Positions 3,367 to 18,277 of a stretch of 21,501 nucleotides of DNA are shown in pieces. Under the pieces are notes generated by a model. It worked only from the letters and a program-made list of their open reading frames with translations, did not search any database and had not been told where the DNA came from. This DNA is from a virus (lineage: Duplodnaviria; Heunggongvirae; Uroviricota; Caudoviricetes), in the IMG/VR virus record IMGVR_UViG_3300021388_000002; one strand, given 5' to 3'. Both the position numbers and the translations under genes were made by a program. The first letter of the stretch is position 1. Every line of letters starts with the position of its first letter.

Positions 3367-3641
3367 TGACGACCCTGGCTGACGCCATCCCGGTGGACCG
3401 CCTGCAGGGCCAGGCCACGCAGGCCCGGCCCGGCCGCGTCATCGCCACCGTCATCACGGCGGTCTTCGTCGGCGTGGGCTGGGTGCCCGGCGCCCTGTGG
3501 CGCTCGCTGGCGTTCATCGCCGTCAGCGTCCGGTACGGCTGGCTGCGCGGCCGGGGGCTGACCGATGAGGACATTGCCGCCCGCGCCGCTGCCCGCGCTG
3601 CCCCGGCGCCAGCACCGCCGCCACCCGGCCCGCGCGCCTGA
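3366..3641 (+). CDS. Hypothetical membrane protein (91 aa)
   Basis: AAGGAG RBS; hydrophobic VIATVITAVFVGVGWVPGALWRSLAFIAVSV; Pro-rich tail. Confidence 0.75.
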   Translation: MTTLADAIPVDRLQGQATQARPGRVIATVITAVFVGVGWVPGALWRSLAFIAVSVRYGWLRGRGLTDEDIAARAAARAAPAPAPPPPGPRA

Positions 3642-3669
3642 GCATCCTCCCGGGCCTGGAGGGGGGATC

Positions 3670-4383
3670 GTGAGCGCTGCCGCAACCCTGGCCGTGCATC
3701 ACCCGCACGTCACTGCTGTCCACGCCGTGCTGCTGCTGCACCCCGCTACCGTGAAGCTCATCCGCACGGTGCTGGCCGCGGTGGCCGGGCGCAAGCCGAA
3801 GGTCTCGGTGGTCACCCCGACCTGGCGGCGCGCCCGGCTGCTGCTGAACCGGTGCATCCCGAGTGTGCAGGCCCAGACCTACCGCGGCGAGATCGAGCAC
3901 ATCATCGTCAGCGACGGGCCAGATCCCGCGCTCGATCACATACCAGGCGTGCACCAGCTGGCCGAGCACCGGCTGTGCGTCAACCGCGGCGTGTGGGCCC
4001 GGCTGGCGGGCACCGAGCTGGCCACCGGGGAGATCTTCGCCTACCTGGATGATGATAACGCCTGGCGCCCGCGGCACCTGGAGGTGCTGGTGGACGCGAT
4101 CACCGCCAGCGGGGTCAGCTTCGCTTACAGCCAGGCCCTGTGCCAGTCCGACACCGGCCTGCGCTGGGTGATCGGCTGCAACCGGCCGGTGTTCGCCCAG
4201 ATCGACACGTCCCTCATCGTGCACAACGCCGGGCTGCTGGAGACCGCCACCTGGGAGCCGTCCGGGCGCCCGGCGGACTGGCACCTGGTGGACCGCTGGC
4301 TGGCCGCCGGGGCGACCTGGGCGCACGTCCCGGAGATCACCCTGGACTATTACGCGCGCCGGGCAGCCGCTACCGTGACATGA
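3670..4383 (+). CDS. Glycosyltransferase family 2 (GT-A fold)
   Basis: GGAGG RBS; VSVVTPTW, SVQAQTY, IIVSDG, GEIFAYLDDDN (DxD), ADW motif. Confidence 0.9.
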   Translation: MSAAATLAVHHPHVTAVHAVLLLHPATVKLIRTVLAAVAGRKPKVSVVTPTWRRARLLLNRCIPSVQAQTYRGEIEHIIVSDGPDPALDHIPGVHQLAEHRLCVNRGVWARLAGTELATGEIFAYLDDDNAWRPRHLEVLVDAITASGVSFAYSQALCQSDTGLRWVIGCNRPVFAQIDTSLIVHNAGLLETATWEPSGRPADWHLVDRWLAAGATWAHVPEITLDYYARRAAATVT

Positions 4384-5210: not shown

Positions 5211-5336
5211 GTGGGGCTGATCGAGCGTATCCGCCACAGCACCGGCCTAGCCCGCCGTGCTGGCAGTGCGCTCTTTTTCGTGCCGCCTGCTCTCCTGCGT
5301 AGCCGGGGGGAGGTGGTTGGCCATGGGTCTCATTGA
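5211..5336 (+). CDS. Putative leader peptide (41 aa) starting with the same MGLIERI as the portal
   Basis: GTG after GAGGAG; open to TGA 5334-5336, overlapping portal ATG 5323. Confidence 0.5.
   Translation: MGLIERIRHSTGLARRAGSALFFVPPALLRSRGEVVGHGSH
5223..5278 (+). terminator. Attenuator-like hairpin plus U-tract within the leader ORF
   Basis: GAGCGUAU/GUGCGCUC, GCCA/UGGC and GCA-CGGC/GCCG-UGC helices followed by TTTTT 5274-5278. Confidence 0.6.
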
Positions 5337-6988
5337 GCGTATTCAGGCAAGTCGTGCTGAGTCTCGCGTTATTGGTGGGGTGCCCTGGCGATTAACGCCC
5401 GTGGGACTCGCCGTTTTTCCGCTTCTCGCAAGGCGGGCCGGTTCACCCGGTGCGGTCGTTCTACGGCAAGGACGAGGCGCTGGGCCTGCCCGCGCTGTAC
5501 GCCGGCTGCCGCTTGCTGGCCGACTCGGTGGCCTCGCTGCCGCTGAAGGTCTACACCCGGGCCACCCGGGACGGGCACGCCATCCGGTACGGCGGCCCGA
5601 CCATTTTCGACGCGCCCTCGGTGACTGGCACGCTGTTCGACTGGCTGTTCACCGCCATGACGAGCCTGGTGCTGCAGGGTAACGCCTGGGGCTTCATCAC
5701 CGGCCGCGACGGCTTCGGCTTCCCGAACGGGATCGAGTGGATTCCGCCCGAGGACGTCATCGTGGCCGACGATGAGCAGCAGCCGTGGAACCCGCTGCGG
5801 AGCCGGATCTACGTCTACGGCCGGCTGATGGACCGCTCGGAGCTGTTCCACATCAAGGCGTTCAGCCTGGCCGGCCGGACCGAGGGGATCAGCCCGCTGC
5901 GCGCGTTCGCGCTGACGATCCTGGCGGGTACCGAGGCGCAGCGCTACGGCACCGACTGGTACAAGGCGGGCGGGTTCCCGCCGGGGACCTTCCAGAACAA
6001 CGAGATCGAGATCGACGCCGATCAGGCCGAGCAGATCCGCGCGACGCTGTCGGCGACGATCCGCAGGCGTGAGCCCCTGGTCTACGGCCGGGACTGGGAT
6101 TACAAGCCGGTCACGGTGCCGCCGAACGAGGCGCAGTTCATCCAGGCCATGCAGATGAACGCCACCCAGATCGCCGCCGTGCTCGGGCTGCCGCCGGACC
6201 GCCTGGGCGGCACCCGCGGGGACAGCCTGACGTACTCGACGGTGGAGCAGTCCACGCTGCAGATCATCGAGGCGCTGCGCCCGTACGTGGTGCGGCTGGA
6301 GCACGCCTTTTTCCAGCTCATCCCGGCCAACCGCTACGTCCGGTTCAACACCGACGCGCTGCTCAAGACCGACCTGAAGACGCGCACCGACATCTACCAG
6401 ATCCAGCGCAACATCGGCCTGCGCACCACTGATGAGCTGCGCGACCTGGAAGACCTGGAGCCGCTGCCCGGCGCGTCCGGCGGGGAGAACATCCCGCTGG
6501 AGGTCATGGTGGCGATGTCGCGCTCGATCCGCGGTATCCCGAACTCGATGCTGTCCGCCATCACGCTGGAGATGGACCTGGCCACCGACCGGCTGCAGCA
6601 GCTGGAGAAGGAGGGCCTGGCCGCCGACTCGGGCCAGCCGATCCCCGGCCCGGAGCAGATGCTGGGCCAGGTCATCGAATCCCAGCGCGGCACGGCACCG
6701 GACCTGCGCGACGTCCGTGATATAGCTGGTGCCTTCCGGCAGCTCGGCATTGATCTTCCAGGTGAGATCATCAGCTCTCTTGCCAGGGAATATGGCCGCT
6801 TCGCGCCCGGTAAGTCCGGGTCCCGCGGGCGGTGGGGGAAAGAGCCCGAGTTCGTGGGCGCCTGGATTCCGTCCCGGCACGAGCTGGTGCTGGACGGGGC
6901 GAACTCGGCTAACGGGAACGGCCACGGCAGCCCTGATGGTGGCGGCGGGCATGGCCTGAACGGAGTCAATGGGTGGTCGCATGAGTGA
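5323..6988 (+). CDS. Phage portal protein (HK97 family), frame-interrupted at 5389-5398; about 552 aa if 7 nt are bypassed
   Basis: ALYAGCRLLADSVASLPL, LVLQGNAW, ELFHIK, GISPL, AQFIQ, IAAVLGLPP, YSTVEQ, TTDELRDLEDLEP; strong RBS GGAGGTGG before ATG 5323, whose frame differs from the main 5396-6988 frame. Confidence 0.93.
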
Positions 6989-7223: not shown

Positions 7224-8234
7224 ATGGCCGATATGAGCAGCGCGGCGATCAATGATCTCCCGGATTCTGCTTTTGCTTTCATCGAGCCCGGAGGCGCGAA
7301 AGACGCCAGTGGCAAGACAACGCCACGGAGCAAGCGTCACTTTCCTGTGCATGATGAGGCTCACACCCGGAATGCCCTGAGCCGGGCGCCGCAGAGCCCG
7401 TTCGGCAAGCAGGCCATGCCGAAGATCATGAGCGCTGCGAAGAAGTTCGGCATCAACGTCTCCGGTGACCAGCGCGCCGCGTTCGGCATCGTGGAGATGG
7501 ACGGCTGGCCCGAGCGCCGGTTCACCCGGTTCCCGCCGGAGATCCGCCAGCAGCGCGACGGCGGCCCGACCACCATCTACGGCTACGCCGCCGCGTTCGG
7601 CAAGCTGAGCCGCAAGCTCGGCGGGTTCGTGGAGCAGGTGGACCCGCGCGCGTTCAACGAGTCCAAGACCGAGGGCTGGCCGGACGTGGTGTGCCGGTAC
7701 AACCACAAGGACGACATGCTGCTCGGCACCACCTACGCCCGGACACTCCGGCTGGCGCTGGATGACACCGGCCTGGCGTATGAGGTCCAGCCGCCGCAGG
7801 CCCGCTCGGACGTGCTGGAGTACGTGGCCCGCGGCGACGTGCGGCACAGCTCGTTCGCCTTCCGGGTGTTCCCCGGCGGGGACGAGTGGGGTGTCTCGGA
7901 GTTCAACTACCCGATGCGGACGCTCCTGTCGGTGCAGCTGGTCGATGTCGCGCCCGTGCTCGACCCGGCCTACCCGGATGCCACCAGCGGCGCACGGGCC
8001 ATGAACGGCGCGATCGAGTCCCTGGCGGGCTGGGTCCAGGGTGATGTGGAGGAGGTCCGCGCCCGGGTCAATGAGGGCCGGGCCATGGAGTTCTTCAAGC
8101 GCACGGACAACGCCGGCCCCGCGAAGAAGGACAGTACCCGCCAGCGGCAGGCGCCGAAGCCTGCCATGACGGGCGCGCAGGCCCTGCTCGCTCTGCAGGG
8201 CAACATGGAAGACCCCTGGGCGGACGAGGATTAG
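7224..8234 (+). CDS. HK97-family prohead maturation protease with extra N-terminal domain
   Basis: GYAAAFG, FVEQVDPRAF, YNH, GLAYEV, RGDVRHSSFAF, LVDVAPVLDPAYPDA; N-terminal ~80 aa LPDSAFA..RHFPVHD..HTRNAL resembles DUF6582 (from recall). Confidence 0.92.
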   Translation: MADMSSAAINDLPDSAFAFIEPGGAKDASGKTTPRSKRHFPVHDEAHTRNALSRAPQSPFGKQAMPKIMSAAKKFGINVSGDQRAAFGIVEMDGWPERRFTRFPPEIRQQRDGGPTTIYGYAAAFGKLSRKLGGFVEQVDPRAFNESKTEGWPDVVCRYNHKDDMLLGTTYARTLRLALDDTGLAYEVQPPQARSDVLEYVARGDVRHSSFAFRVFPGGDEWGVSEFNYPMRTLLSVQLVDVAPVLDPAYPDATSGARAMNGAIESLAGWVQGDVEEVRARVNEGRAMEFFKRTDNAGPAKKDSTRQRQAPKPAMTGAQALLALQGNMEDPWADED

Positions 8235-8274: not shown

Positions 8275-8358
8275 GCTGAGGCCGTAGCTGCCGCCGGTAT
8301 GGACGGAGCCAGTGCAGATGCCATCACGAGAGGAGAACATCGTGGCATCTGAAGTGGC
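8275..8358 (+). promoter_or_regulatory. Leader RNA motif copy 3 with start-codon-sequestering hairpin
   Basis: GCUG-AGG-CCGU...ACGG-AGC-CAGU 8275-8313; CAGAUGCCA 8315-8323 pairs UGGCAUCUG 8343-8351, extended by GCCA 8308-8311/UGGC 8355-8358. Confidence 0.65.
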
Positions 8359-9601
8359 CAAGCGCCTCCGCGACAGGCGGCAGAACGTCTGGAACGACGC
8401 CAAGGGGATCGCCGAGCAGGCGGCCCAGGAGAACCGTGCCCTGACCGATGAGGAGCAGGGCCGGTGGGACGCGATGCAGGAGGAGATGTCCAAGCTGGAC
8501 ACCCGCATCCGCGCCGTCCTGGACACCGAGAAGCGGGCCAAGGAGGCCGACGACGCGTTCGACGCGCTGTCCGGCCGCAAGCCCGACCAGGGCCAGGCCC
8601 AGCGCACCGCCGGGGGCTCCCGGATGCTGGAGGAGGTCCGCAAGTGGGCCCGCGGCGAGGAGGGTGCGTCCCGGCACCTGGAGATCCGCCGTGACCCGGC
8701 CCTCGGCCCAGTCAACTACCGTGTCCTGACCACGGGGTCACAGGGCACAAACGCCAGCAGTATCGTGCCGACTGACTTCTACGACATGCTGATCGCACAC
8801 CTGATCGAAGTGTCCGGGGTCATGCAGTGCGGGCCTACCGTGATCAACACGGGCGGCGGCGAGACGCTGCAGGTGCCCAAGACCACGGCGCACTCCACCG
8901 CGGCCTCGGCGGCCCAGGCGGGCACGATCCCGACCTCGGACCCGGCGTTCAGCATGCAGCCCCTGTCGGCCTGGAAGTACGGCATCATGCTGCAGGTCGC
9001 GCGGGAGCTGATCGATGACACCGCCGTGGACCTGCTTGGCTACCTGGCCATGCAGGCAGGCCGGGCGCTCGGCAACGCGTTCGGCAACGACCTGGTCAAC
9101 GGCTCCGGCAACAGCCAGCCGGCCGGCATCGTGACCACCGCCACGACCGGCGTGACCGGCTCGGTGACCGGCGTGTCCGGCAGCCCCAGCTACGCCAACC
9201 TGGTGGACCTGGAGTACTCGGTCATCGCTCCCTACCGCCAGTCGCGCAGCTGCTACTGGCTGGCGGCGGATAAGACGATCGGTTCCTTCAGGAAGATCAC
9301 CGACACGGTCGGCCGCCCGATCTGGGAGCCGTCCGCGGTGCTCGGCAGCCCCGACCTGCTGCTCGGCAAGCCCCTGGTGGCCGATCCGTTCATGCCGGCC
9401 CTGGCCACCAGCGCCAAGTCCATCGCGTTCGGTGACTTCAGCCAGTACTTCGTCCGCCTGGTCGGCGGGGTCCGGTTCGAGCGCAGCGATGACTTCGCGT
9501 TCGGCTCTGACCTGGTGACCTTCCGCGCGATCCTGCGCGGCGACGGCACCCTGGTTGACCGCACAGGCGCGATCAAGGTGTTCCAGGGCGCGTCCAGCTA
9601 A
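8342..9601 (+). CDS. Major capsid protein, HK97 fold, with N-terminal coiled-coil delta/scaffold domain (419 aa)
   Basis: AGGAG RBS before GTG 8342; ENRALTDEE, IVPTDF, VARELIDD, NGSGNSQPAGI, GRPIW, LLGKPLV, IAFGDFS, FRAILRGDG. Confidence 0.95.
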   Translation: MASEVAKRLRDRRQNVWNDAKGIAEQAAQENRALTDEEQGRWDAMQEEMSKLDTRIRAVLDTEKRAKEADDAFDALSGRKPDQGQAQRTAGGSRMLEEVRKWARGEEGASRHLEIRRDPALGPVNYRVLTTGSQGTNASSIVPTDFYDMLIAHLIEVSGVMQCGPTVINTGGGETLQVPKTTAHSTAASAAQAGTIPTSDPAFSMQPLSAWKYGIMLQVARELIDDTAVDLLGYLAMQAGRALGNAFGNDLVNGSGNSQPAGIVTTATTGVTGSVTGVSGSPSYANLVDLEYSVIAPYRQSRSCYWLAADKTIGSFRKITDTVGRPIWEPSAVLGSPDLLLGKPLVADPFMPALATSAKSIAFGDFSQYFVRLVGGVRFERSDDFAFGSDLVTFRAILRGDGTLVDRTGAIKVFQGASS

Positions 9602-17921: not shown

Positions 17922-18277
17922 TGGCGGACCGGTATGAGGATGAGCGCGGCGTCATCCAGGATCTGTTCGGCGCCGTGGACGGCATCACCAAGATCACCAC
18001 GAAGGCCGGGGCGGTGCGCGGCAATCACGTGCACCCGGACACCACCCAGTGGACCTACATCGTCAGGGGCCGGATGCTGTTCCGCTGGGTGGAGGCCGAT
18101 GGCGTGATCACCGATGAGATCCATGGCACGGACGAGCTGATCGAGGAGCCGGCCGGCTGCCCGCACGCCTGGCAGGCCATCGAGGACTCCACCGTCCTGG
18201 TTATCACCCGCGGGCCGCGCTCCGGCGAGGGGTTCGAGGCCGGCACCCGGCGGCTGGAAGTGCCGATCCTGTTATGA
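17921..18277 (+). CDS. Cupin-fold sugar isomerase/epimerase (WxcM/FdtA/RmlC-like)
   Basis: DERG, VRGNHVH, QWTYIVRG, PAGCPHA; located in the sugar cluster. Confidence 0.8.
   Translation: MADRYEDERGVIQDLFGAVDGITKITTKAGAVRGNHVHPDTTQWTYIVRGRMLFRWVEADGVITDEIHGTDELIEEPAGCPHAWQAIEDSTVLVITRGPRSGEGFEAGTRRLEVPILL

Follow-up and report, generated by a model that had tools for sequence, protein, structure and literature searches.

In bacteriophage T4 gene 60, peptidyl-tRNA leaves a take-off codon that is followed by UAG, passes a gap of 50 nucleotides and re-pairs at a matching landing codon, a hop that depends on a take-off stem-loop and a nascent-peptide signal, and one protein is thereby read from two frames. 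A shorter form of bypassing, triggered by the rare leucine codon UUA, was proposed by Smith et al. (2013, J Bacteriol) for two 10-nucleotide gaps in the terminase gene of phage phiHau3 and for a 7-nucleotide gap in the prophage StrepC.1 (PMC10732093). Antonov et al. (2023, RNA Biol, PMC10732093) surveyed 100 genes and added a third, the large terminase of an S. catenulae prophage being among the three cases, and, using a UAA variant of the phiHau3 terminase in E. coli, identified a junction peptide by mass spectrometry. These authors remarked that the idea of UUA bypassing had languished mostly unknown (PMC10732093), a 2016 review of recoding named these phage genes the best candidates for regulatory bypassing (PMC5009743), and a 2025 paper raised the possibility for the primase of Bxb1 (PMC12646305). 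UUA bypassing has so far meant three terminase genes and one set of heterologous experiments, and our literature search turned up no account of it for portal genes or for phages from metagenomes. Here we analyse the portal gene of an uncultured phage, contained in a stretch of 21,501 nucleotides (the window; the minus strand of G000:C1:24917-46417, where G000 is an IMG/VR virus record, IMGVR_UViG_3300021388_000002). Comparison with its relatives indicates that the portal family is very probably a new case of this sparsely documented mechanism and one with a very rich natural series of alleles. The Streptomyces phage precedent to which the initial annotation of this window had pointed is real, namely the phiHau3 terminase (PMC10732093).

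The portal gene is split between two frames on the plus strand of the window, to which all coordinates below refer unless stated. Exon 1 (5323-5391) consists of ATG 5323 and 22 further codons, MGLIERIQASRAESRVIGGVPWR, and its peptide is kept in relatives. Its frame ends GTG CCC TGG CGA and then meets TTA at 5392-5394, ACG and CCC (reading L, then T P V G). The last codon of exon 1, CGA at 5389-5391, is the candidate take-off codon and would be read by tRNA-Arg(ICG) through a weak I-A wobble pair; the in-frame UUA behind it is the proposed trigger, a slow or 'hungry' codon in the A site. The portal frame, which is +1 to exon 1, is closed by a TAA overlapping the UUA (5393-5395) and open from CGC 5396 (RPWDSPFFRFSQGGPVHP...) to the stop at 6986-6988, and the frames were thus correctly assigned in the initial annotation. 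The coding gap comprises the 7 nucleotides TTAACGC (5392-5398), of which the last three are the putative landing codon CGC (5396-5398), re-paired and not decoded again, and exon 2 (5399-6988) would be decoded from CCG 5399 as PWDSPFFRFSQGGPVHP... to the same stop. Skipping the 7 nucleotides gives VPWRPWDSPFF, the majority sequence of relatives, in keeping with the seamless junction that had been predicted. The joined protein matches Pfam PF04860 (Phage_portal) over profile positions 1-321 of 321 (E 9e-52, 176.7 bits, cut-off 39.1), and this full-length match together with the order of the neighbouring genes identifies it as an HK97-family portal. When UUA is read as leucine, the frame from ATG 5323 runs instead to a TAA at 5680-5682 and yields a product of 119 amino acids, for which we found no Pfam match.

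A database gene call, P0004, starts the portal at GTG 5450. Upstream of this codon lie residues that are invariant in 40 relatives (P2 W3 P6 F10 G13 G14 P15 H17 P18 of P0002), and the portal frame contains no ATG, GTG or TTG between 5396 and GTG 5450. P0004 is therefore not the whole protein.

A search of 5.8 billion proteins returned hundreds of portals with 56-79% identity, and the stitched window junction is the majority GGVPWRPWDSPF(F/W) of these relatives. Their database N-termini fall into four groups. Most read ...RVIGGVPWRPWDSPFW..., the product of skipping the window's 7 nucleotides; a few read VPWRLRPWD or VPWRLSRPWD; several start with CPGDYRPWDSPF, which is the +1-frame reading of GTG CCC TGG CGA TTA C; and many are called from internal starts. 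Gene callers begin about a third of the database relatives at internal or wrong-frame positions, and essential genes of uncultured soil phages are in this way recorded as N-terminally truncated or misframed.

We collected the DNA of relatives from IMG/VR (80) and from Joint Genome Institute (JGI) metagenomes (80), together with the portal-context hits of the pattern search TGGCGATTA...CCNTGGGA, and parsed them with a skip of 2-15 nucleotides permitted only at an in-frame TTA. The counts leave out the parse GGG[TTATCAGC] in L174, a parser artefact. In gapless genes the end of GVPW and GGPxHP are 36 nucleotides apart, and all other distances are explained by one or two short inserts led by an in-frame TTA. 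Removal of the TTA-led gaps brings 98 distinct N-terminal regions to the same 20-residue stretch, GGVPWxPWxxPxxxFxxGGP, with a single exception that has an apparent deletion. Gaps are present in 39 of the 98 regions and absent from 59, as expected from the proposal that homologues would show either a contiguous junction or short TTA-led gaps. The 49 gaps in total represent 38 distinct alleles at 9 codon positions, with lengths of 2-13 nucleotides, and 29 of these alleles change the frame and 9 keep it. Every one of the 49 starts with an in-frame TTA directly 3' of the last shared codon, and no other insertion or deletion was found in the 20-residue stretch of the 98 distinct N-termini. Because all length deviations in these relatives start in this way, the feature lies far beyond chance. 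The rule that holds across the family is a take-off codon, an in-frame TTA, 0-10 further bases and a matching landing codon, after which the canonical sequence resumes.

Further properties of the series concern what lies inside and on either side of the gaps. In two-gap alleles (7+2, 7+8, 10+5 and 8+4 nucleotides) the canonical RPWDSPYW peptide is kept in the shifted frame between the gaps, where several of these alleles have a zero-frame TAG, and one in-frame gap of 12 nucleotides holds TAA. The same gap alleles were found again in independent assemblies from different metagenomes. Purifying selection is seen on both sides of the gap: over the 22 codons upstream, the ratio of non-synonymous to synonymous polymorphism (pN/pS) is 0.25 in frame-changing-gap alleles and 0.32 in gapless genes, with pS near 0.7, which indicates that exon 1 is under purifying selection in the former just as in the latter. 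On the portal-body tree the gap alleles lie dispersed, and near-identical bodies carry different gaps (L041 versus L032, L021 versus L019), a pattern that implies either fast turnover of the gaps or exchange of the 5' end by recombination.

The codons that flank the gaps are mostly matched. Among the 38 alleles the landing codon is identical to the take-off codon in 11 (for example CAG[TTAACAG], AAT[TTAAT] and TGG[TTAAGCGTGG]), synonymous in 18 (CGA[TTAACGC] in the window, TCT[TTAGTCC], TAT[TTAC]) and near-cognate in 9. The window pair, CGA to CGC, encodes arginine on both sides and both codons are readable by tRNA-Arg(ICG). A fourth base exists in 37 gap alleles, and 24 of these open with TTAA or TTAG. 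In 25 of 38 alleles the take-off codon has A or T in third position, as against a GC content at third codon positions (GC3) of about 0.9 in portal bodies, and landing codons are often the C-ending synonym of the take-off. This asymmetry agrees with a peptidyl-tRNA that is held loosely on the take-off codon and pairs more firmly with the landing codon. Of 17 arginine take-offs, 15 are CGA, the rarest CGN codon here (10 of 15,479 codons), consistent with the suggestion in the initial annotation that weak reading of CGA matters.

TTA is almost unused elsewhere in this phage. It is the rarest sense codon, occurring once among 15,479 codons of 31 long open reading frames (ORFs) and twice among 42,206 codons of 199 coding segments, so that its near absence, first noted by eye, holds genome-wide. 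Portal bodies of 67 relatives contain one in-frame TTA in 34,074 codons. Among the 38 tRNA genes of the phage are Leu(CAG), Leu(GAG), Leu(CAA) and Arg(ACG), and none is for Leu(UAA). Both in-frame TTAs among the 42,206 codons lie at most four codons from a stop. One, at window position 18272, is the last sense codon before a TGA that overlaps the ATG of the next gene (CTG TTA TGA, 18272-18277); the other, at G 65589, stands four codons before a TAG and likewise overlaps the next ATG. The sole TTA in a portal body belongs to L060, whose portal ORF of 1,055 codons is unusually long and apparently fused. As to the tRNA genes, 37 form a block at 145,710-159,131 of G000 in window orientation, with one elsewhere; the block covers most amino acids and includes tRNAs for the rare A-ending codons CAA, AGA, AAA, ACA, CCA and GGA, and the set is without Leu(UAA), Leu(UAG), Phe(GAA), Val(UAC), Ala(UGC), Ser(UGA) and Ser(CGA).

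A genome-wide screen of G000 for TTA-led gaps found a second one of the same build outside the window. It lies on the minus strand at L083:2092-2125 (G000:C1, about 152,512-152,545), in a glycosyltransferase-like gene (PF13524) that reads ATG CGT GTA CTG ATA GTG CAC CCT GGT[TTAAGGT]CCC GAC, with a 7-nucleotide gap at codon 9. Twelve relatives of this gene have MR(I/W)L(V/I)VHPGPxFSV without interruption. The device is thus not peculiar to the portal. Other candidates were set aside. A third, GCC[TTATCGCC] at G 16512, was rejected, having an ordinary ATG start just downstream and no relatives that we could find. When all retrieved loci were scanned beyond the portal N-terminus, the hits were false positives only: GCG[TTATGGCA], for instance, is the ATG start of the following gene, and instances of xxT TAC are out-of-frame tyrosine codons. 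A TTA screen based on GC3 was dropped as too noisy, antisense frames in high-GC DNA also scoring well.

These observations make it highly likely that the portal gene is expressed by UUA-triggered programmed bypassing, a short ribosome hop over 7 nucleotides. The hop itself, its efficiency and its purpose are inferred. Ribosomes would start at ATG 5323, translate 23 codons, largely rare A- or T-ending ones, and pause with peptidyl-tRNA-Arg on CGA 5389-5391 and the A site empty on UUA 5392-5394. The weakly paired peptidyl-tRNA would then detach, the mRNA would slide by 7 nucleotides and the same tRNA would re-pair with CGC 5396-5398. Decoding would restart at CCG 5399 and give a single portal protein with the junction VPWR-PWDSPFF and the predicted tryptic junction peptide VIGGVPWRPWDSPFFR, containing neither leucine nor threonine. 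Ribosomes that decode UUA as leucine would make the 119-residue dead-end peptide instead. The comparison strongly supports the scheme put forward in the initial annotation, in which stalling on UUA lets peptidyl-tRNA-Arg hop from CGA to CGC.

We looked for features near the gap that might stimulate such a hop. A G-rich, Shine-Dalgarno-like run, GGTGGGGTG (5374-5382, plus strand), falls in Gly-Gly-Val codons 7-15 nucleotides 5' of the take-off and is a possible stimulator. GGAG, GAGG or GGGG occurs in the Ile-Gly-Gly-Val codons of 19 of 22 gap alleles and 11 of 33 gapless ones, in a post hoc test uncorrected for shared ancestry. The leader is also unusual in its codon usage. Over the roughly 20 codons before the motif, GC3 is 0.57 in gap alleles versus 0.74 in gapless genes, with bodies near 0.90 in both (Mann-Whitney p 1e-4), and the window is the extreme of this trend, its exon 1 leader (5326-5388) consisting largely of rare A- or T-ending codons with a GC3 of 0.40 versus 0.96 in the portal body. 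Both comparisons were picked with the data already in view and are uncorrected for shared ancestry, and we take leader codon usage and the G-rich run as possible leads to stimulators, not as findings. A small hairpin, GGCG-AUUAA-CGCC (5387-5399, plus strand), would place the UUA in its loop and the take-off and landing codons in opposite arms. Its z-score is -1.06, and those of the other hairpins around the gap are -0.16, -1.25, +0.93, -2.92 and -1.21; UUA-loop hairpins form in some relatives and not in all. With these unremarkable scores we dropped the hairpin as a general feature of the gaps.

Bypassing has to be weighed against explanations that need no hop. In programmed +1 frameshifting, UUA would be decoded as leucine, or the ribosome would slip at ACG or at CCC-G after the UUA, leaving one or two extra residues at the junction (VPWRLRPWD or VPWRLTPWD). 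Such residues may be tolerated, as natural in-frame alleles encode VPWRLRPWD and VPWRLSRPWD (P0029, P0052, P0068, P0038; L042, L046), and CCC-G, found here at 5398-5401, is a context prone to +1 frameshifting. The initial annotation had argued that a simple +1 slip would terminate. This stands for a slip at or before the TTA, which meets TAA 5393-5395, and fails for a slip at ACG or CCC-G, which passes, so the TAA alone does not exclude frameshifting. The site does not have the make-up of a prfB- or Ty1-type frameshift signal, since CGA_U does not re-pair as GAU and the +1 A-site codon is UAA; neither the CGA-to-GAU nor the UUA-to-UAA shift allows re-pairing, and once UUA has been decoded there is no slow codon and again no re-pairing. 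A single-base shift does not account for gaps of 2, 5, 8 and 11 nucleotides. Gaps of 2, 4, 5, 7, 8, 10, 11 and 13 nucleotides would each need different shifts, and one rule (take-off codon, UUA, landing codon of the same tRNA) covers them all. Frameshifting also leaves unexplained why take-off and landing codons match in 29 of 38 alleles, as well as the exact restoration of the 20-residue motif in all 98 sequences, and in phiHau3 a +1-frame stop placed within the gap did not lower recoding (PMC10732093). We consider it very unlikely.

It is about as improbable that no recoding takes place, whether because the 7 nucleotides stem from faulty assembly or sequencing or from a recent mutation that inactivates the gene, or because the portal starts at GTG 5450 as in P0004. 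Gene callers do begin the protein there, yet the family-invariant residues between 5396 and 5450 lie in a stretch without a start codon. The same architecture recurs in 39 distinct relatives from many samples, with identical alleles in separate assemblies, exon 1 is under purifying selection, and the contig, which is bounded by direct terminal repeats, carries a similarly built gap in a further gene. Least credible of all is that the insert never reaches the ribosome, being removed by RNA editing, as a mini-intron or through polymerase slippage, which would leave a contiguous mRNA. The thought has a history, as for T4 gene 60, too, an intron was the initial suspicion. The inserts of 2-13 nucleotides share nothing but the TTA, however, and this TTA invariably keeps the frame of the codons before it. 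Since frame is something that only the ribosome can sense, this speaks against excision from either RNA or DNA. Homopolymer runs that slippage would require are absent except for TTT[TT], and the flanking codons match by amino acid and not by sequence, which points to tRNA re-pairing. Several points nevertheless weigh against bypassing. The window's exact allele is known from one assembly only, which also speaks for the absence of recoding; no second copy of its exact 21-mer showed up among metagenome contigs, and no second contig with the database protein P0004 was found. Nine alleles land at codons that are only near-cognate (TGG to AGG, CGG, TGC or TGT; GAT to GGY; ATG to ATT), so strict re-pairing is not universal. 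The proposed stimulators are weak (hairpin z -2.9 to +0.9; Shine-Dalgarno-like enrichment post hoc). Finally, the case for the hop is one of sequence comparison.

Set beside the described systems, the putative portal hop most resembles the phiHau3 type. In both, UUA stands directly 3' of the take-off codon, a short gap (7-10 nucleotides) changes the frame, take-off and landing codons match and relatives have an uninterrupted junction; both concern an essential virion-assembly gene in a high-GC, actinophage-like genome that hardly uses TTA. They differ in that the gene here is a portal and not a terminase, with its gap 23 codons from the start, and that its phage, uncultured and 164 kb in genome size, has 38 tRNAs and is not known to lysogenize. 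Here, moreover, 38 alleles at 9 codons with gaps of 2-13 nucleotides, known from sequence, compare with 3 genes in 100. The portal shares with T4 gene 60 the release of peptidyl-tRNA at take-off and its re-pairing at a matching landing codon. It departs from the T4 type in having a 7-nucleotide gap, a rare sense codon in place of UAG and no significant structure. As far as they are recounted in PMC10732093, hungry-codon bypassing in E. coli reporters (Gallant and co-workers) and short tRNA hops (Weiss et al. 1987) likewise involve an empty A site and a slide of a few nucleotides to a nearby cognate codon; those events were low-level and occurred in artificial constructs, whereas the portal hop would be required for an essential natural gene and its architecture is conserved. 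The mitochondrial 'byp' elements of Magnusiomyces capitatus (Lang et al. 2014), again in the account given by PMC10732093, are also numerous short inserts with matched flanking codons that vary between relatives. They are longer (27-55 nucleotides), resemble GC clusters, are mitochondrial and are not led by one rare codon.

The dozens of independent natural alleles in the portal family, varying in length, position and codon pair, supply comparative evidence that the hypothesis of UUA bypassing had lacked, and they could serve directly as constructs with which to establish the rules of hopping. As to its purpose, the hop could sense the supply of tRNA-Leu(UAA) or could keep portal output low. 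The initial annotation proposed, more specifically, that portal would be produced only while the bldA-type tRNA is in short supply, which would link assembly to the development of the host. If it does depend on tRNA-Leu(UAA) supply, the hop would couple virion assembly to host physiology. A constitutive role, as attenuation of dosage or as the breaking of a nuclease target like the gap of T4 gene 60, fits the data as well as regulation does. We also entertain, tentatively and as the less likely case, that the first 40 codons of the portal family are a hot spot at which UUA-led gaps are gained, lost and moved on a short evolutionary time scale, the gaps being a tunable device and neither passengers nor a simple bldA sensor. 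On this hot-spot reading the gaps may come together with the rare A- or T-ending leader and the G-rich Shine-Dalgarno-like run. The device may set the dosage of the portal (12 copies per virion), or it may disrupt a conserved DNA target at which a site-specific nuclease or a gene-conversion system acts, in the way that the gap of T4 gene 60 does for mobA. Were the gaps such a hot spot, the 38 natural alleles would give the rules of short-range hopping: a weak wobble pair at take-off, a strong one at landing, and near-cognate landing for Trp and Asp.

The genome is 164,420 base pairs long with 70% GC and direct terminal repeats. Genes in the window follow the order large terminase (1169-2932, an ORF matching annotated actinophage large terminases), GT2 glycosyltransferase (3565-4383, between terminase and portal), portal, S78 prohead protease (7224-8234, 3' of the portal) and HK97-fold capsid protein (8312-9601, 3' of the protease). 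The nearest cultured relatives are actinophages, with 34-37% identity in the terminase and 30% in the portal. No portal relatives were found in 185,579 GTDB species genomes, and thus no prophage relatives there, and cluster names gave no pointer to a host. Actinomycetota are suggested as the host only by the 70% GC content and by the remote resemblance of terminase and portal to actinophage proteins.

Three further observations concern the portal genes and their surroundings. Some relatives (P0038, P0040, P0042, P0046, P0053 and P0079) are 780-930 amino acids long, which suggests inserted domains or inteins, or fusion to the protease (P0073 carries PF04586). In L186 (Ga0318546_10005887) the whole leader is apparently lost: about 40 nucleotides before GGPVHP, the ribosome-binding site GGGGGTGATGCCTG runs directly into GTTAGCCTGCAAATTTGAC, which is the W13 gap of L041 and L032, and this arrangement may be a microhomology deletion or an assembly chimera. 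In the window itself, GTG GGG CTG ATC GAG CGT ATC at 5211-5231 encodes a second MGLIERI, 112 nucleotides 5' of the real portal start. The sequence around it (..CCGGCCCCGTGGGGCTGATCGAGCG) matches that of the true start region in relatives including L005, L008 and L024, and a hairpin with a T-run follows. This second MGLIERI looks like the remnant of a replaced or duplicated portal 5' end, which would fit exchange of the N-terminal module by recombination.

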